From Clostridia bacterium (GTDB lineage Bacteria > Bacillota > Clostridia > Oscillospirales > CAG-272), in NCBI GenBank assembly GCA_017461385.1, contig JAFTXZ010000003.1, positions 146,392 through 210,391 on the forward strand: a stretch of DNA of 64,000 nucleotides. The letters are read 5' to 3'. Shown here in pieces: positions 8,895 to 30,790 of this stretch (positions within the stretch are counted from its first letter, which is position 1; each line of letters starts with the position of its first letter). A model generated the notes under the pieces. That model saw only the letters and a program-made list of their open reading frames with translations, had not been told where the DNA came from and ran no database searches. The position numbers and the translations under genes are program-made.

Positions 8895-11027
8895 TCATAG
8901 TATCTCGGTTTCCTTACAAGCTACAGTAAAGCTTGCAGGCGCATTTTTTGTTAGCTGTGTCGCTCTTTGCGTTCCTTGACCATTGCCGACAAAAACAGTA
9001 TATTCGCCCTCGTTTAGCGTAAGCTCACCATTCTCGTTATAAAGAGCAAAGTCTCTTTTTCCAAGATGGAGTGTTATTTTCTTTGCTTCACCCGGCATAA
9101 GCTCAACTCGCTTGAATGCCCTTAGACTCATAACGGGTGCGTCCTTGCTATGTGCCTTTACATAAGCCTGAACGACCTCGCTTCCCTGAAGCTTGCCTTT
9201 GTTTTCTACCTCTACCGTCACATTTATTCCCTTGTCGGTCAGCTCCAAAACATCAAGCTCAGCGCTGATTTTATATGAGTTGTATGAAAGACCAAAGCCA
9301 AATGGATAAAGAGGCTCCCTCGTCATATAGCGATAGGTTCTGTCCTTCATTTCGTAATTTGTGAATTCAGGCAAATCCTCAAGAGATTTGTAAAAGGTTA
9401 TTGGTAGCTTACCCTCAAAGGAAAACTCGCCGAATATTGCCTTAGCAATAGCCTCGCCACCCCTTTCGCCTGGATACCAGCCTTGAATTATAGCATCAAA
9501 CTCCTCATCCTGCCAGCTTAAATCCATAGCGCTTCCTGTCATTGACACAAGGATTGATTTTTTTGCGTTTTCTGAAATTTCCTTCATTATTTGATTTTGT
9601 ATGCCTGGAAAGGAAAGGGTTGGCTTATCTCCCTGCATGCCAAGTCCGCCTGGCATTTCCTCTCCCTCTAGGCTTTCATCAAGCCCAAAGACTCCAATTA
9701 CTACGTCGCATTCCTTGCAAATTTCTCTCACCTCATCAAGACGATCGTTGTCATACCACTCGGTAGTTGGCTTTATAAGGTCACAGCCCTGGGAATAATA
9801 GACACGTATCCCCTCTTTTTCGCAATAATCCTGCACTCCCTCTAGCGCAGTTACGTATCTTGAAGCAATGCCGTGGTAGTTACCTTGAAGCGCAGCTCGG
9901 CTATCTGCGTTAGGTCCAATTACACCAATTGATTTAATTTTCTTTTTGTCAAGAGGCAACGCCCCATTGTTTTTCAAAAGCACAATGCTCTTTTTTGCGC
10001 ACTCCAATGCCAAGGCTCTGTGCTCAGGGCAAGCCACAACAGAATAAGGAATATTGTCCCAAGGGGTGCTTTCGTCAAACTCACCCAGCTTCATTCTTGT
10101 TGTAAATAGTCTTACGCAGCATTCGTCAATATATTTTTCCTCGAGCAAGCCACTTTTTACTGCATTGACAGCGTGCTGATACATACAGCCACAGTTTAGG
10201 TCACAGGTGTTTTCAACTGCAAGCTTAACCGACTCCATAGGCTCCTTTGTTACCTTGTGATACTCGTGGAAATATCTAATAGCCTCACAGTCAGAGGTTA
10301 CGTAGCCGTCAAAGCCCCATTTATCTCTTAAAATTCCCTTTAGGAGTGTAGGACTTCCACAACAGGGCTCATCATTAGTACGGTTGTATGCGCCCATTAC
10401 TCCCTCAACCTGTGCTTCCTTGACACAAGCCTCAAAGGCTGGCAAATAGGTTTCCCACAAATCTCTTTGACTTACCCTTGCATTAAAGCTACTTCTTATT
10501 CCCTCAGGTCCTGAGTGCACCGCGAAATGCTTAGCACAGCCAGCCGACTTTAGGTACTTTTCGTCATAGCCTTGAAGTCCATTTATAAATGCAACGCCAA
10601 TTTTTGATGTAAGATATGGATCCTCACCATAGGTTTCGTGACCTCTGCCCCAGCGTGGGTCGCGAAAAATATTAATGTTAGGAGACCAAAAGGTAAGCCC
10701 CTTGTAGCCCTTATAGTCCTTTACTCTTTGTGAAGCGTTAAATTTTGCTCTTGCCTCCGTGGAAATTACGTCTCCAACCCTTTCCACAAGCTCAGTGTCA
10801 AAGGTGGCACCAAGCGCAATAGCCTGTGGAAACATAGTAGCAACGCCTGCCCTTGCAACGCCATGAAGCGCCTCATTCCACCAGTCGTATTCCTTAATGC
10901 CTAGATGCTCTATTTCAGACGCCTTGTTTATTATTTGAGAAACCTTCTCCTCAAGCGTCATTTGGGAAACTAATGCCCTTGCACGCTCCTCAAATTCCTT
11001 TTTGTACTTTTCCTTTACGTTTGCCAT
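8895..11027 (-). CDS. Glycoside hydrolase family 3 (beta-glucosidase/beta-xylosidase type)
   Basis: GFDGYVTSDCEAI matches the GH3 GFxGxVxSDW motif. Length and domain order are typical. Confidence 0.8.
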   Translation of the reverse strand: MANVKEKYKKEFEERARALVSQMTLEEKVSQIINKASEIEHLGIKEYDWWNEALHGVARAGVATMFPQAIALGATFDTELVERVGDVISTEARAKFNASQRVKDYKGYKGLTFWSPNINIFRDPRWGRGHETYGEDPYLTSKIGVAFINGLQGYDEKYLKSAGCAKHFAVHSGPEGIRSSFNARVSQRDLWETYLPAFEACVKEAQVEGVMGAYNRTNDEPCCGSPTLLKGILRDKWGFDGYVTSDCEAIRYFHEYHKVTKEPMESVKLAVENTCDLNCGCMYQHAVNAVKSGLLEEKYIDECCVRLFTTRMKLGEFDESTPWDNIPYSVVACPEHRALALECAKKSIVLLKNNGALPLDKKKIKSIGVIGPNADSRAALQGNYHGIASRYVTALEGVQDYCEKEGIRVYYSQGCDLIKPTTEWYDNDRLDEVREICKECDVVIGVFGLDESLEGEEMPGGLGMQGDKPTLSFPGIQNQIMKEISENAKKSILVSMTGSAMDLSWQDEEFDAIIQGWYPGERGGEAIAKAIFGEFSFEGKLPITFYKSLEDLPEFTNYEMKDRTYRYMTREPLYPFGFGLSYNSYKISAELDVLELTDKGINVTVEVENKGKLQGSEVVQAYVKAHSKDAPVMSLRAFKRVELMPGEAKKITLHLGKRDFALYNENGELTLNEGEYTVFVGNGQGTQRATQLTKNAPASFTVACKETEIL

Positions 11028-15306: not shown

Positions 15307-16779
15307 ATGAATACTTATATCGGAATAGACCTGGGCACCTCCTCGGTAAAGCTATCACTAGTTGGTGCCGATGGTAAAATATTAAAATCAGCAACGCGCT
15401 CTTACCCTGTCAACTATCCACAAAGTGGCTGGAGCGAGCAAGCCCCAGAGAATTGGTACGACTCTACCCTTGACGCAATAGTTGAATTGCTAGAGGGACA
15501 GAACAAAAAAGCAGTACGTGGCATTTCCTTTGGCGGACAAATGCATGGTCTTGTAATTCTTGATAAAAACGACAAGGTTTTGCGTCCTGCTATACTTTGG
15601 AATGATGGCAGAACCTTTAAGGAAACCGAATACCTAAACACAGTAATCGGCAAGGAAAAGCTATCAGAGTATACAGCAAATATTGCCTTTGCAGGCTTTA
15701 CCGCACCAAAAATTCTATGGGTTAAGGAAAACGAGCCTGAAATTTTTGAAAAAATTGAAAAGATTATGTTACCAAAGGACTATCTTGCATATATGCTAAG
15801 TGGCGCCTTTGCAACAGATTTTTCCGATGCCTCGGGTATGCTGCTTTTAGACGTTGAAAACAGATGTTGGAGCAAGGAAATGCTAAATATCTGTGGTGTA
15901 ACGGAAAATATGCTACCTACCCTTTATGAATCAAGCGAGAAAATAGGCACGCTTAAGATTGACCTTGCAGAAAAGCTGGGTCTTGATAAGGACGTAGCAA
16001 TTGTTATAGGTGCAGGAGACAATGCAGGCGCTGCCGTTGGTACAGGCACTGTAAACAATGGTAGCTGTAATATTTCTCTTGGTACAAGTGGTACTGTTTT
16101 TGTATCTCAAGATAAGTTTTTTGTTGATTCCTCAAATGCGCTTCATAGCTTCTGTCACTCAAACGGCAAATATCATCTTATGGGCTGTATTCTTTCTGCG
16201 GCATCCTGTAATAAGTGGTGGGTTGAGGATATTCTCGGCACAACCGATTTTAGGAAAGAGGAGTCAGAGTGCGATTCTTATCTTGGCGAAAACGAGGTTT
16301 TATTCTTGCCTTACCTAATGGGTGAAAGAAGTCCTCACAACGATACCGATGCCCGTGGCGCATTTATAGGTATGCGACCAAACACCAAAAGGTGTCAAAT
16401 GACTCTTTCCGTTTTAGAGGGTGTTGCCTTTGCCCTTCGTGATTGCGTGGAAATCGCTAATGAGGCAGGCATCAAAATCGACAAAACAACAGCCTGTGGA
16501 GGCGGAGCAAAGAGTCCGCTTTGGCGTAAAATCTTGGCAAATGTTCTTGGTATTCCCGTGCTTCGCACAGAAATCGAGGAGGGTCCCTCCTACGGTGGTG
16601 CAATCCTTGCAATGGTAGGCTGTGGCGAATATAAAACTGTAGAGGAAGCCACAGAAAAGCTAATTAAAATAAAGGACGAAACAGCCCCCGACACTATCCT
16701 TACACAAAAATACGAGCAAAAATATCAGCTTTGGAAAAAGCTTTACCCTGCATTAAAGGACGTATATAAGCAATTCTAA
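15307..16779 (+). CDS. xylB: Xylulokinase (FGGY carbohydrate kinase)
   Basis: MNTYIGIDLGTSSVKLSLV and FGGY-family motifs throughout. Immediately downstream of xylA. Confidence 0.9.
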   Translation: MNTYIGIDLGTSSVKLSLVGADGKILKSATRSYPVNYPQSGWSEQAPENWYDSTLDAIVELLEGQNKKAVRGISFGGQMHGLVILDKNDKVLRPAILWNDGRTFKETEYLNTVIGKEKLSEYTANIAFAGFTAPKILWVKENEPEIFEKIEKIMLPKDYLAYMLSGAFATDFSDASGMLLLDVENRCWSKEMLNICGVTENMLPTLYESSEKIGTLKIDLAEKLGLDKDVAIVIGAGDNAGAAVGTGTVNNGSCNISLGTSGTVFVSQDKFFVDSSNALHSFCHSNGKYHLMGCILSAASCNKWWVEDILGTTDFRKEESECDSYLGENEVLFLPYLMGERSPHNDTDARGAFIGMRPNTKRCQMTLSVLEGVAFALRDCVEIANEAGIKIDKTTACGGGAKSPLWRKILANVLGIPVLRTEIEEGPSYGGAILAMVGCGEYKTVEEATEKLIKIKDETAPDTILTQKYEQKYQLWKKLYPALKDVYKQF

Positions 16780-16785
16780 TAAAAA

Positions 16786-16816
16786 AGATGCAATCAGTTC
16801 CGATTGCATCTTTTTA
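16786..16816 (+). terminator. Rho-independent terminator after xylB (first of two)
   Basis: AGATGCAATC-AGTTCCG-ATTGCATCT then TTTTT. Confidence 0.75.
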
Positions 16817-16821
16817 TATTC

Positions 16822-16853
16822 AAAACGGAGCAGATTTCTCTGCTCCGTTTTTG
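16822..16853 (+). terminator. Second tandem terminator after xylB
   Basis: ACGGAGCAG-ATTTCTC-CTGCTCCGT then TTTTT. Confidence 0.7.
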
Positions 16854-16861
16854 TTAATTTA

Positions 16862-17338
16862 CGCACCAACTAACAACTAGGGAAAGTTAGAAACAAGAAT
16901 TTCTCGTGAACCCCCAAAACTCATACCTCGTTTCGGGGAACCCCTCCCACGGCGCACCGCAGGCAGGGGACGAAGTCGTACTTTGCGTACGTCGAGGTCA
17001 CTGCCGAGGAGCAACACAGAAATGCGACGCTTATCGCACCAACTAACGACTAGGGAAAGTTAGAAGCAAGAATTCCTCGTGAACCCCCAAAAATTCGCAG
17101 AATTTTCGGGGAACCCCTTCCACGGCGCACCGGAGTTGGCAGATGATGACGTACTTTGCGTACGTCGAATTTGTCAGCGAGGAGCAACAACGAATTTCGT
17201 AGCTTATCACTTTACCTAGCATCTAGATGAACAAGAAGCAAACATTTCAAGGCGCACCGCAGGCAGGGGACGAAGTCGTACTTTGCGTACATCGAGGTCA
17301 CTGCCGAGGAGCAACACAGAAATGCGACGCTTATTGCG
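16862..17338. repeat. GC-rich 173-bp tandem repeat array, about 2.7 copies, non-coding
   Basis: Copy 1 is 16862-17034 and copy 2 is 17035-17207. The third unit has a divergent 5' part, but its 3' half (17251-17334) is near-identical to copy 1 (one mismatch). Each full copy carries the hairpin motif GAACCCCCAAAA...TTTCGGGGAAC (16908-16941 and 17081-17114). The array abuts the infB stop codon at 17339-17341. Confidence 0.85.
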
Positions 17339-20137
17339 TTATCTCGCAACTTCTTGCATTTCGTAAGCTTCTAATATATCCCCTTCCTTTATGTCGTTAA
17401 ACTTATCTAGTCCAACGCCACACTCGTAGCCAGCTGCAACCTCTTTTGCATCGTCCTTGAATCTCTTCAAGGAAGAAATTTTGTCTTCTGCTATTACTAC
17501 ACCGTCACGAATAATTCTTATGAGGGATTGTCTTGTAATCTTACCGTCTTGAACGTAGCTACCTGCAATTGTACCAACGTTTGGAACTCTGATGGTCTGA
17601 CGAACTTCAGCGTGGCCGTTGATAACCTCTTTATAGGTTGGTGCAAGCATACCCTTCATAGCAGCTTCGATTTCTTCTATGATTTCATAAATAATTCTAT
17701 GGGTTCTAATATCAACGCCCTGTCTTTCTGCAGAGTCAATAGCACTCTTGTCAGGACGTACGTTAAAGCCAACGATAATTGCATTTGATGCAGCAGCAAG
17801 CATAACGTCGCCCTCAGTAATACCACCAACGGCTGTATGAATTACGCTAACCTTAACCTCTGGATTGGAAAGCTTAACAAGTGAAGCCTTTACAGCCTCT
17901 GCGCTTCCTCCAACGTCTGCCTTAACGATAATATTGATTTCCTTAGCACCGTCGCTAATTTGAGCAAATAGGTCGTCAAGGTTAACCTTTGCATTAGCCT
18001 TGAATACCTCCTCCTTAGCCTTAGCCTTTCTTTGCTCAGCAAGCTCTCTTGCCATCTTTTCATCCTTAACGGCATTGAACTCATCACCTGCCTGTGGAAC
18101 CTCGGAAAGACCAGTAATTTCAACAGGAACAGATGGACCTGCAACCTTAAGTGATTTTCCGTTGTGGTCAGTCATAGCTCTTACGTGACCTACTGCAGTG
18201 CCTGCAATAACAACGTCACCAGACTTAAGTGTACCATTTTGTATAAGAATTGTTGCAACAGGTCCTCTACCCTTATCAAGCTTAGCCTCAATAACGATAC
18301 CCTTAGCAAGTCTGTCAGGATTTGCCTTAAGCTCCTTAACCTCAGCAATAAGCAAAATACTTTCAAGTAGGTCGTCAATACCCATCTTTGTGTGAGCAGA
18401 AACAGGAATACACATAACGTCACCACCCCATTCCTCCGGAACAAGGTCGTATTTTGTTAGCTCCTGCATAATGTTGTCAGGATTTGCAGTTGGCTTATCC
18501 ATCTTATTTATAGCAACAACGATATCTACGCCAGCAGCCTTTGCGTGGTTGATAGCCTCAACGGTTTGTGGCATAATTCCGTCGTCTGCTGCAACAACGA
18601 TGATTGCAATATCAGTTGCCATAGCACCACGTAGACGCATAGCAGTAAATGCCTCATGGCCCGGGGTGTCAAGGAACGTAATGTCCTTGCCGTTAATATT
18701 TACTCTGTAAGCACCGATGTGCTGGGTAATACCACCAGCCTCACCAGTTGTAACGTGAGTGTGTCTGATTGCGTCAAGAAGTGATGTTTTACCATGGTCA
18801 ACGTGTCCCATAACGCAAACAACCGGAGCTCTCTCCTTAAGGCTTTCCGGAGCATCAACCTCCTCCTCAAAGAGCTTTTCCTCGATTGTAACCACAACCT
18901 CTTTAGAAACCTTAGCGCCAAGCTCATCACCAATTAGATATGCTGTATCATAGTCAATTACTTGGTTTACGGAAGCCATAACGCCCATAAGCATAAGTCT
19001 TTTGATAACCTCGCCAGAGTTTACCTTAAGTCTTGTTGCAAGCTCACCAACGGTAATTTCGTCTGGAACAGTAATAGCAAGCTGAGTGTTCTTAGCCTTT
19101 TCAAAGATAGCTCTCTTTTGCTTATCAAGCTGTCTTTCCTTGTCCTTTTTAGAGCCGAAGCCCTCCTTGTTATTCTGCTTTTTGAGCTTTTGTCTGTTGC
19201 TTCCGCCACCTTGGTATCTCTCGTTCTCGTCCTCGTATGCCTCAAACTTTTCATCATACTTAGAAAGGTTTACGTTAGATGAACGAGTATCTACAAGACG
19301 GGTTGCACCTGTCTTTGTCTTAATCTCGATAACGTTGCTTTCAGGCTTCTTGGTTTTTGGCATAACGTTGTAGGTACGGCGCTCGCCACCGTCTTTATCG
19401 AAGCCACCAAATTGACCCTTTTGTCCCTTATCAAACTTATTGTTGTTATCGAATTTGCGGTCAGGTCTTTGTCCTTGACCCTGTCCCTTATTATCAAAGG
19501 ACTTCTTTTCAAACTTGTTCTCGAATCTGTCATTTTTATTCTCGAACTTGTTTTCGCCCTTAAAGTCAGGCTTTTTATCGAACTTTTGGTTGTTACCAAA
19601 ATCCTTTTTCTCAAATTTCTGCTCTGGCTTAGTCTCAGGCTTCTTTTCTACCTTAGCCTCAACCTTTGCTTCAACCTTTGGTTCAGGCTTCTTCTCTACC
19701 TTAGCCTCAACCTTAGGTTCAACCTTAGCTTCTACCTTCTTTTCAGCCTTTGGTTCAACCTTTGATTCAACCTTTGGCTCAGGCTTCTTCTCTACCTTAG
19801 CTTCAACCTTTACTTCAACCTTTGGTTCAGGCTTCTTCTCTACCTTTACCTCTGGCTTAGCTTCAACCTTAGGCTCAACCTTCGGTTCGGCCTTTACCTC
19901 TGGCTTCTTTTCTGCCTTTTTCTTCCTTGTGCCAATGGTAATCTCACCATTTAGGTATTTCTCCATCAAGCCCTTTGCCTGATGCTCCATTGTATATTTG
20001 TTCAAGAAAACGGAGATTTCATCATCTTGAATATTTCCTGTCTGTTGCTTTTGTCCTAAGCCGTATTTCTCAATTAGGTCAAGAGCGTCCTTTATATCAA
20101 GGCCTAAATCCTTTGCAAAGTCTTTAATTCGTGCCAT
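17339..20137 (-). CDS. infB: Translation initiation factor IF-2 with an N-terminal KPEVK repeat region
   Basis: GTPase motifs [16 protein letters not shown]...DTPGHEAF...NKMD, 932 aa. The gene context is that of the nusA operon. Confidence 0.95.
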
Positions 20138-24854: not shown

Positions 24855-25031
24855 ATGCCTAACATCTGTGAATCCTGCGAGTATTACGACTACGACGAGG
24901 AATTTGAAGAATACTACTGCAAAATAAACCTTGACGAGGACGAATATCTTCGCTATATATCAAGTAAAAACCAATCCTGTCCATACTACAAATTTTACGA
25001 CGAATACAAATCTGTACAAAAGCAAAATTAA
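24855..25031 (+). CDS. Small (58 aa) acidic Cys4 protein, possible zinc ribbon
   Basis: MPNICESCEYYDYDEEFEEYYCKINLDEDEYLRYISSKNQSCPYYKFYDEYKSVQKQN. RBS AAGGA lies 7 nt upstream. Its 3' end is the first unit of the 127-bp tandem repeat. Confidence 0.5.
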   Translation: MPNICESCEYYDYDEEFEEYYCKINLDEDEYLRYISSKNQSCPYYKFYDEYKSVQKQN

Positions 25032-25285
25032 CTGCTTTATACTACACCTCATCCGTCTGCCTTGCAGACACCTTCCCCTCCGAACAAAGGGGAAGGCTTT
25101 AACCTGTCCGTACTACAAATTCTACGACGAATACAAATCTGTACAAAAACAAAATTAACTGCTTTATGCTACACCTCATCCGTCTGCCTTGCAGCCACCT
25201 TCCCCTCCGAACAAAGGGGAAGGCTTTAACCTGTCCCTATTACAAATTCTACGACGAATACAAGTCGGTACAGAAGCAAAATTAA
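24978..25285 (+). repeat. 127-bp tandem repeat, 2.4 copies: a 54-nt coding segment (CPYYKFYDEYKSVQKQN plus stop) and a 73-nt spacer carrying the hairpin CCTTCCCC-TCCGAACAAA-GGGGAAGG
   Basis: Units begin at 24978, 25105 and 25232. The period is not a multiple of 3. All nine substitutions in the coding parts are third-position synonymous. Confidence 0.85.
25166..25285 (+). CDS. Possible 39-aa small ORF created inside repeat copy 3 (MLHLIRLPCSHLPLRTKGKALTCPYYKFYDEYKSVQKQN)
   Basis: An A-to-G change in the spacer creates an in-frame ATG at 25166. The C-terminal 17 aa are identical to the upstream small protein despite 6 synonymous changes. No obvious SD. Confidence 0.25.
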   Translation: MLHLIRLPCSHLPLRTKGKALTCPYYKFYDEYKSVQKQN

Positions 25286-25299
25286 ATCACGCAAAGCGT

Positions 25300-25410
25300 G
25301 TATGGAATCGACACAACGCGTCGTATGGAATTACTACCACAGGTAGTGTATGGAATCGACACAACGTGTCGTATGGAATTACTACCACAGGTAGTGTATA
25401 GAATCAACCC
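25300..25410 (+). repeat. 48-bp tandem repeat, 2.3 copies, in the dus leader
   Basis: Unit GTATGGAATCGACACAACGCGTCGTATGGAATTACTACCACAGGTAGT at 25300 and 25348, then a partial third. Each unit contains an internal GTATGGAAT direct repeat. Confidence 0.8.
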
Positions 25411-30589: not shown

Positions 30590-30790
30590 ATGCAAATTTA
30601 GTGAAGTTTTCGCTTATGCGAAAGTGAAGTTGCTTTGCAGTGAAGTTCGTGCTATCGTACGAGTGAAGTTAAGTTTGCCCACCTTGCCGAAGGCAAAACT
30701 TCACGATCTGCAGGATCACTTCACTTACGAAGTAAACTTCACTTGCCCGCAAGGGCAAACTTAGTTGCGTAGTGTCCTTAAGGGCACTAC
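30590..30790. promoter_or_regulatory. Iteron-like array: 4 direct GTGAAGTT motifs, then 3 inverted AACTTCAC motifs, interleaved with at least 6 short perfect palindromes
   Basis: Read directly from the sequence. Palindromes are TTCGCTTATGCGAA, TCGTACGA, TTGCCGAAGGCAA, GATCTGCAGGATC, TTACGAAGTAA, TTGCCCGCAAGGGCAA and GCGTAGTG..CACTACGC. Confidence 0.6.

Follow-up and report, generated by a model that had tools for sequence, protein, structure and literature searches.

THE ARRAY AT THE infB LOCUS

We analyzed a 64,000-nt stretch of DNA from a Clostridia bacterium (the window; contig JAFTXZ010000003.1, positions 146,392–210,391), in which a repeat array at positions 16862–17338 follows infB, the gene for IF-2. 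The array consists of three tandem units, each a long hairpin, and lies between the infB stop codon and two bidirectional terminators; related copies in other genomes make up a large family of the same fold. The features of the locus are as follows.

15307..16779, + strand: xylB-like FGGY kinase gene, convergent with infB (open reading frame (ORF); Pfam FGGY_N/FGGY_C in L001)
16782..16815, both strands: second terminator hairpin, bidirectional, with a 14-bp stem, immediately past the xylB stop codon (repeat search and sequence)
16822..16851, both strands: intrinsic terminator, bidirectional, with a 13-bp stem flanked on either side by A and T runs (repeat search and terminator scan)
16862..17034, − strand: unit C (covariance model match 16908–17055, 62.9 bits; repeat search)
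16908..16944, − strand: nested GGGG module of unit C (sequence)
17050..17219, − strand: unit B (covariance model match 17188–17124, 50.2 bits; alignment; minimum free energy (MFE) fold)
17081..17117, − strand: nested GGGG module of unit B, GGGGTTCCCCGAAA-loop-TTTTGGGGGTTC (repeat search and sequence)
17225..17344, − strand: unit A, complete long hairpin without the GGGG module (match to covariance model R1 at 17208–17355 (−), 80.5 bits, E = 9e-23)
17339..20137, − strand: infB (IF-2), 932-aa ORF (Pfam IF2_N/GTP_EFTU/IF-2 on the identical gene in L001)

The initial annotation had described a GC-rich 173-bp tandem repeat that abuts the infB stop codon between convergent xylB and infB genes, and this description held. 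Tandem Repeats Finder reported a 173-nt period at 16862–17208 (2.0 copies, 80% matches, score 445), and the array ends at 17338, adjoining the infB stop codon TAA at 17339–17341 on the minus strand. Pfam identified the neighbors as an FGGY kinase and IF-2, the GC content was 0.48–0.54 in the array versus 0.41 in the whole window, and the longest ORF in the array was 59 aa, in agreement with the statement that none reaches 60 aa. A repeat search found a 90-nt half of the unit three times, at spacings of 173 and 127 nt; the first and third of these halves were 97% identical, and the second was 73% identical to the first, which matches the earlier account of two nearly identical copies and a diverged one. 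The string CGTACTTTGCGTAC has three exact matches in the window, all of them in the array (chance expectation, 0.26).

The infB operon has the order rimP-nusA-ylxR-ylxQ (L7Ae)-infB, and the FGGY kinase gene is preceded by a xylose-isomerase-like gene (both by Pfam). On the infB strand, the stop codon is followed by the three units and then by the two terminators. Thus, infB does not lack a canonical terminator, as had been supposed: the hairpins at 16782–16815 and 16822–16851, both between the array and xylB, are perfect and carry a T run on both strands, and the latter is the first terminator past the array on the infB strand. Considered as intrinsic terminators themselves, the units lack the T run that should follow the stem, and the terminator-scan matches at 17040–17021 were weak (6–8 pairs, 3 of them G-C). 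The absence of rbfA after infB, noted earlier, proved uninformative; relatives show the same layout of infB, element, and terminator. A promoter-like site inside the end of infB, at 17400–17373 on the minus strand (TTAACG-16-TATATT, 9 of 12 matches), could drive an independent transcript of the array; promoter-like matches in the region occur at about the chance rate (2 found, 1.4 expected).

A search of the array against Rfam 15 gave no match at E ≤ 10, and the units were not reclassified as a known RNA. At gathering thresholds, tRNA and Gut-1 alone were found in the whole window, both away from the array. The Gut-1 RNA (RF01706) lies at window positions 30693–30767 on the minus strand (53.3 bits); a sub-threshold Gut-1 match of 46.8 bits occurs in contig L033 (1171–1240), ∼140 nt from a family member that carries the GGGG module.

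FOLD AND COVARIATION OF THE ELEMENT

RNAalifold and pair counting showed that the unit is one long irregular hairpin of ∼130–170 nt. The outer stems, P0/P1, are variable in sequence and compensated; the P2 helix is conserved in sequence (GUUGYUCC/GGURCGCC, including a U.G pair and interrupted by a bulged U and, in most copies, a U.U mismatch); the P3 helix is variable; and the apical hairpin, P4, has the conserved form CGUAC-loop-GUACG. For the 29 pairs of the consensus, 87–89% of cells were paired versus 64–65% in shuffled data and at most 51% with slid partners, and 761–770 cells were changed on both sides versus ∼280 expected. This strong covariation across a large family sustains the earlier proposal of a structured repeat under selection for pairing. 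The register of P2 is fixed by the covariation of Y79:R143 (CG 91, UA 20). The invariance of P2 is partly circular because P2 was in the search pattern; copies found by the model only, without the pattern, had compensated inner P2 pairs (GCGAC/GUCGC and GCAAA/UUUGC) and retained GUUGC/GCGCC. The apical hairpin covaried in a Eubacteriales metagenome-assembled genome (MAG), with CTATC-GAAAA-GATAG versus CGTAC-GCAAA-GTACG.

In the 64-kb window, the covariance model R1 detected the three units and nothing else, with E values from 9e-23 to 2e-13. All three contain GTTGCTCCTC, CGGTGCGCC, and (C/T)GTACGCAAAGTACG, and with them the P2 and P4 sequences of the family. The P2 strands of unit A are at 17315–17306 and 17259–17248 and its P4 tip, GTAC-GCAAA-GTAC, is at 17290–17278; the P2 5′ strand is at 17188–17179 in unit B and at 17015–17006 in unit C. 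The outer arms pair in units A and B. In unit B the outer stem is formed by CTAGGTAAAGT (17219–17209) and ACTTTCCCTAG (17060–17050), and the MFE fold pairs the CTAGG.. and ..CCTAG arms. The short CGTAC hairpin of the initial annotation was therefore real, being the P4 tip of the family in all three units, but such small hairpins are not the main structure.

The third copy had been taken as partial. We found that unit A is a full element without the nested 46-nt stretch carrying the GGGG module. This module is the hairpin GAACCCCCAAAA..TTTCGGGGAAC that had been assigned to each full unit; it is indeed present in both 173-nt units, measures ∼37–45 nt, follows the P2 3′ strand, and is outside the family consensus. 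In unit B it separates the 3′ strands of P2 and P1. Its carriers are units B and C, L002, and L033. A compensatory stem change in copy 2 was not borne out: the shared stem CCCC(A/G)AAA/TTT(T/C)GGGG is the same in both module-bearing units, and the loop of copy 2 is merely self-complementary. The GGGG module may be a small repeat family of its own. A viral contig (L150, IMGVR_UViG_3300029305_011650) holds two identical free-standing modules of the form GGGGTTCCCCGAAA-loop-TTTTGGGGGTTC at 9271–9309 and 9415–9453, 144 nt apart; their surroundings contain no long-hairpin element.

Folded in the infB sense, the RNA of the array reaches −176.9 kcal/mol with 26 G.U pairs, compared with −148.7 kcal/mol and 10 G.U pairs for the other strand, and the folding z-score for the array plus terminators is −6.4. 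In the MFE folds of two related loci, L002 and L004, the last infB codons and the stop codon pair with the tail of the element through stems that differ in sequence (GCGAGAU/AUCUCGC and CUAGGUAAAGU/ACUUUCCCUAG). In the window, the last infB codons and TAA (17341–17339) can pair, by eye, with the 3′ tail of unit A (AGAUAA/UCAUCU).

A FAMILY ACROSS TWO PHYLA

A genome scan with the apical-hairpin sequence recovered the infB-locus relatives and two tandem units in an unrelated Eubacteriales MAG, where they follow a 464-aa ORF taken for asnS from its translation. The pattern GTTGYTCCTC-N44–48-CGGTRCGCCKTG was found in at least 120 stretches of metagenome contigs. R1, which was built from 114 non-redundant members, gave 142 matches (96 + 46) at E < 0.01 in the fetched loci, including copies not matching the pattern, and several copies can share a contig (four in L133, three in L044). 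These counts bear out the earlier suggestion that the repeat might be dispersed. A FadA protein whose gene adjoins one subfamily has 100% identity to a Thalassolituus protein from NCBI, and the element is present in Bacterioplanoides pacificum (GCA_042648445.1), both genera being marine Gammaproteobacteria; together with the Clostridia MAG, these hosts indicate that the family spans Bacillota and Pseudomonadota. When 20 member loci were compared with Rfam 15 at E ≤ 0.1, the element received no match beyond chance-level ones to sraL and FMN, and a limited literature search by sequence string and keyword found no description of it. The long-hairpin repeat family is apparently undescribed so far.

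GENOMIC CONTEXTS OF THE COPIES

The contexts of the copies were assigned from crude ORF calls. Between the P2 5′ strand and the stop codon of the same-strand ORF upstream of it, the median distance was 40 nt, which puts the stop codon at the base of the hairpin. With flanking ORFs of at least 180 aa, the copy was in a convergent context 11 times, in a co-directional one 21 times, and in a divergent one 3 times. The element preceded the terminator 21 + 12 times and followed it 2 + 15 times; the 15 reverse-order cases were taken as mostly two-way terminators because they are on the same side as the 21.

In L133 a copy follows each of four successive same-strand genes (451, 278, 311, and 247 aa), which from size and order only suggests an ordinary ATP-binding cassette (ABC) transporter operon. 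Other copies follow an EF-Tu-like ORF and a ClpB-like ORF that comes after dnaK/dnaJ-like ORFs, and in L054 two copies in opposite orientations, 1.2 kb apart, lie on the two sides of the first of two transketolase ORFs (all of these names are from translations).

Many copies are in tRNA arrays and 16S-23S rRNA spacers, as identified with Rfam and ARAGORN. Family members occur in 16S-23S spacers next to tRNA-Ile/Ala in L028 (1132–1283), L078 (177–619), and L096 (1885–1980), where presence or absence of the element would alter the length of the rRNA intergenic spacer. Orthologous tRNA Val-Asp x3 arrays contain two elements in Thalassolituus sp. (L147/L148, 8396–9170), one in B. pacificum (L149, 8546–8993), and none in L145 (8494–8743). 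The first spacer of L149, an “empty” one, holds the outer arms of the element only, and because these arms are retained, loss by deletion across the palindrome is suggested. The Thalassolituus spacers also hold partial tRNA-Asp duplicates.

RELATIVES AND HISTORY OF THE infB ARRAY

The window belongs to an uncultured Clostridia MAG of gut metagenomes, and an identical infB locus is present in the assembly ERZ27256818; we compared the infB loci of four related genomes (L002/L003, L004, and L005). In L002/L003 (IF-2 86% identical), a single unit directly follows the stop codon and is followed by a terminator. L004 (IF-2 82%) has a single unit without the GGGG hairpin and duplicated tail pieces, followed by the same two terminators, and L005 (IF-2 76%) has a short element remnant only. 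Unit B of the window shares its type with the L002 and L004 units. Units A and C have a different P3 helix, which is also found in unrelated contigs, e.g. L100 and L020. Unit C is a mosaic, with a 5′ half 97% identical to unit A and a 3′ half 95% identical to unit B, in keeping with the duplication or gene conversion that had been proposed among the copies.

The different unit types and the mosaic unit C therefore indicate that the array arose by addition of a second type and recombination, with no simple triplication. These comparisons show that one element is a long-standing resident of the infB locus that the second type (A and C) joined later, and that the mosaic units came from unequal recombination or gene conversion.

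COMPARISON WITH KNOWN SYSTEMS

One close likeness is to the enterobacterial repetitive intergenic consensus (ERIC), also called the intergenic repeat unit (IRU). ERIC is an imperfect palindrome of ∼127 bp that forms a long hairpin, occurs only in transcribed intergenic regions and in both orientations, is co-transcribed with flanking genes, and is reported to alter mRNA stability in a manner that depends on orientation (PMC2229807). The present element is likewise an intergenic imperfect palindrome of ∼130 nt forming one long hairpin and, by eye, E. coli ERIC shares with it GCTGCGTT.., ..CGCCTT, and a CTTAC-loop-GTAAG tip. The copy compared was that of the ybhJ-ybhI spacer (L144, 553–692); the motifs are shared and the profile tests failed. 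R1 scored 9.3 bits on an E. coli ERIC, and nhmmer with the family hidden Markov model gave no match to ERIC (shuffled copies reached 5.8 bits). Homology is thus unsupported, ERIC serves as an analogue only, and the resemblance reflects either distant relationship or convergence. Short inverted repeats at the termini and a target duplication of TA characterize ERIC (PMC2229807, Table 1); neither was seen in the copies. ERIC is also confined to enterobacteria and close relatives, whereas this element is in Clostridia and Oceanospirillales. We know of no report of a fixed ERIC orientation in tRNA/rRNA operons.

For repetitive extragenic palindromes (REPs), passages in PMC3733652, PMC3116915, and PMC3333891 propose roles in mRNA stabilization and as a single-stranded DNA substrate. 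Like REPs, the bacterial interspersed mosaic elements (BIMEs) that contain them, and REPINs, the copies are intergenic palindromes after stop codons and between operon genes, often clustered, in which paired changes keep the hairpin. However, REPs measure 20–40 nt, have a GTAG or CGTC head, and usually stand in inverted pairs, whereas the element is a single 130–170-nt hairpin in head-to-tail clusters. Moreover, no REP-associated tyrosine transposase (RAYT) was found near the copies (506 flanking ORFs), and copy number in the 64-kb window is low, with three copies at one locus. Repeats resembling miniature inverted-repeat transposable elements (MITEs), such as Correia/NEMIS, RUP, BOX, and bcr1, are also 100–200 bp long, give long stem-loop transcripts (PMC2229807), and lie near gene ends, and BOX shares the modular or nested composition. 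These repeats are genus-specific with conserved termini, whereas the element is conserved in mid-hairpin and most variable at its termini.

L133, with four genes each followed by a copy, resembles an integron cassette array. Integron attC sites are 57–141 nt long, keep fold over sequence, follow each gene of the array, and are functional on one strand, with core sites RYYYAAC/GTTRRRY that pair at the base of the hairpin. In the element, GTTGCTC lies in the 5′ arm of a helix that is internal, and it pairs with GGTGCGCC instead of RYYYAAC; furthermore, the window units are contiguous with no cassettes between them, and no integrase is nearby. An attC identity was thus rejected. The same applied to a type III toxin-antitoxin RNA array (unit of 173 nt versus ∼36 nt, and on neither strand a gene ahead of a terminator or a convergent gene), to clustered regularly interspaced short palindromic repeats (173-nt units without repeat-spacer architecture), to the template-variable repeat pair of a diversity-generating retroelement (unit differences are not adenine-specific), and to a riboswitch or T-box leader (no downstream gene follows the array). 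A kink-turn target of YlxQ (L7Ae) was considered because ylxQ is directly upstream of infB, and was rejected. By eye, the GA motifs are on the strand antisense to infB, and the P2-P3 junction loop has no conserved kink-turn with a 3-nt bulge (window GCA/GA); the family is also in Gammaproteobacteria. Finally, reading frames on the + strand differ by eye between the units, which argues against a small conserved ORF or Shine-Dalgarno-ATG there.

A PUTATIVE infB 3′ UNTRANSLATED REGION AND ITS RIVALS

Anatomy, position, and clustering place the element with the REP/BIME and ERIC-type repeats. We favor, at an even level of confidence, the reading that a dispersed intergenic repeat of this palindromic kind forms a tandem cluster here, which acts as the infB 3′ untranslated region (3′UTR). 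Because the array is between the infB stop codon and the terminators, it would be transcribed as the 3′UTR of rimP-nusA-ylxR-ylxQ-infB, with the last infB codons and the stop codon as part of the outer stem. The RNA hairpin would then passively block 3′-5′ exonucleases or offer a site to a double-strand RNase, and thereby set the stability of the infB mRNA 3′ end. By analogy with REP and ERIC elements, for which an effect of this sort is described (PMC2229807), an influence on the stability or processing of this 3′ end is the most likely one.

Several points weigh against this reading. The argument for a stabilizing role is one of analogy throughout. That P2 and P4 keep their sequences across phyla points to a specific partner, and none was found. 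An all-against-all BLAST of 506 flanking ORFs revealed no recurrent family except generic ABC ATPases, and no transposase recurred near the copies. The flanks of 18 closely related copies showed no common target-site duplication and no MITE-like terminal inverted repeats, the termini being the most variable part of the element; CTAG..CTAG flanks the L004 unit and unit B and is not general. A pattern scan of IMG/VR and a BLAST search against 72,556 plasmids did not find the element.

The strand rules also count against it. Copies in stable-RNA operons (at least 27 in 22 loci plus L147–L149) all have the CAAGGCGYACCG...GAGGARCAAC strand in the transcript, which is the + strand of the window, antisense to infB; beside protein genes, both orientations are about equally common. 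On the GTTGC strand, the non-Watson-Crick cells of the variable helices comprise 224 pyrimidine.pyrimidine versus 39 purine.purine and 96 A.C versus 40 G.U, and on the opposite strand these cells become purine.purine (often tandem G.A) and G.U. Because of this asymmetry, the CAAGGCGYACCG strand is on average 5–8 kcal/mol more stable. The asymmetry was seen in every context class, including copies in which the mRNA has the GTTGC strand. Neither the fixed orientation in stable-RNA operons nor the mismatch bias is predicted by a passive hairpin that would function on both strands. The window array is an exception in that its infB-sense strand folds better; L002, L004, and L020 are mixed.

Two causes considered for the strand rules were rejected. 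Replication direction fits neither the window, where GC skew and gene bias make the minus strand the leading strand, nor the two orientations in L054. Adaptation of G.U pairs to the locally transcribed strand gave a weak trend only (p = 0.04), and the mismatch asymmetry was equal in all context classes.

The cross-phylum core, the orientation rule, and the one-strand mismatches, which a passive hairpin leaves unexplained, keep two rivals alive. Both would make the family a new class of strand-specific single-stranded element, either a structured RNA with a conserved protein partner that lies within tRNA/rRNA precursors and 3′UTRs of hosts ranging from Firmicutes to Gammaproteobacteria, or a mobile hairpin whose RNA or single-stranded DNA intermediate is strand-specific and whose mode of spread would be new, with P2/P4 as the recognition site; we consider this broader proposal rather unlikely.

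As a functional RNA, the element would act through the CAAGGCGYACCG...GAGGARCAAC strand, for instance by binding a protein or directing processing in transcripts that it shares with tRNAs and rRNAs, and copies in the opposite orientation, the infB array included, would be inactive passengers or be expressed by xylB read-through. The uniform orientation of the stable-RNA copies, the greater stability of this strand, its purine.purine mismatches (with tandem G.A as in CAGAUG/CAGAUG) and G.U pairs, and the retention of the P2 and P4 sequences in two phyla all agree with such a role. However, it is the other strand that enters the mRNA in about half of the copies beside protein genes, among them all four in L133 and those that follow infB, the EF-Tu-like ORF, the ClpB-like ORF, and the presumed asnS. 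As for the window, two strong terminators precede the array on the + strand, a scan of that strand gave no promoter-like site, and the minus strand folds better. Copies are decayed or deleted at orthologous sites (L005, the first L149 spacer, and L145), and several copies per genome together with tandem arrays would be unusual for a dedicated RNA gene. We consider a functional RNA rather unlikely.

A non-autonomous mobile element that moves, as REPINs or IS200/IS605 do, through a single-stranded hairpin of one particular DNA strand and is mobilized in trans by an unlinked enzyme is in our estimate also doubtful. Here the hairpin and P2/P4 would be the features recognized by the enzyme, and effects on RNA would be by-products. 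A mismatch asymmetry that is independent of the locally transcribed strand fits selection on an intermediate and not on local mRNAs, and covariation with almost no G.U is expected of a DNA hairpin. The family is multi-copy and dispersed, forms tandem clusters with another module nested inside, and varies in presence at orthologous tRNA spacers. There is a precedent in passages of PMC3333891 and PMC8266576, according to which Y1 transposases recognize REP hairpins. On the other hand, no Y1/RAYT or other transposase recurred in about 500 flanking ORFs, neither target-site duplication nor conserved termini were seen, and the plasmid and viral collections yielded no copies. In addition, orientation is mismatched with the inferred replication direction in the window and takes both forms 1.2 kb apart in L054, and the “empty” sites resemble deletions that keep the outer arms, not unoccupied targets.

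We regard as very improbable a DNA-level architectural site, i.e. cruciform-prone or gyrase-binding DNA behind heavily transcribed genes. Such a role has been proposed for some REP/BIME elements, and many copies do lie behind usually highly expressed genes or RNAs (EF-Tu-like, infB, ClpB-like, and rRNA and tRNA operons), in both orientations beside protein genes. Yet the helix conserved at P2 is an imperfect one that contains a wobble, a bulge, and a mismatch, and neither this nor the strand-asymmetric mismatches and the strict orientation in stable-RNA operons is expected of DNA read as a duplex. A neutral local tandem duplication without a wider family, the null explanation given at the outset, would fit the confinement of the three window copies to the infB locus, and retains practically no probability in view of the hundreds of related copies with compensatory changes elsewhere and of the two subtypes (units A/C and unit B) that both occur in other organisms.

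If the favored placement among palindromic intergenic repeats is correct, the array represents an uncatalogued, cross-phylum family of structured repeats that occupies operon junctions, rRNA spacers, and tRNA arrays as well as the 3′ ends of core genes. Repeats of this sort confound the annotation of genes and small RNAs, create hot spots of misassembly and recombination, and can make mRNA stability differ among the genes of an operon. The one-strand mismatch pattern, together with the strict orientation of copies in stable-RNA operons, gives a handle on the origin and spread of palindromic repeats, and B. pacificum, as a cultured and named host, makes the question testable.

OTHER REPEATS IN THE WINDOW

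The region encoding the N-terminal part of IF-2 (19635–19919, minus strand) contains coding tandem repeats with periods of 12, 24, and 48 nt, which correspond to a low-complexity IF-2 linker. At 24976–25285, the final ∼56 nt of a small Cys-rich ORF (MPNICESCEYYDYDEE...) are duplicated along with the hairpin downstream of that ORF, ccttcccctccgaacaaaggggaagg, in a 127-nt tandem repeat of 2.4 copies; this repeat is followed by a 48-nt repeat of 2.2 copies at 25298–25405. The region 24856–25405 is thus the second case in the window of a tandemly repeated gene 3′ end with a hairpin.

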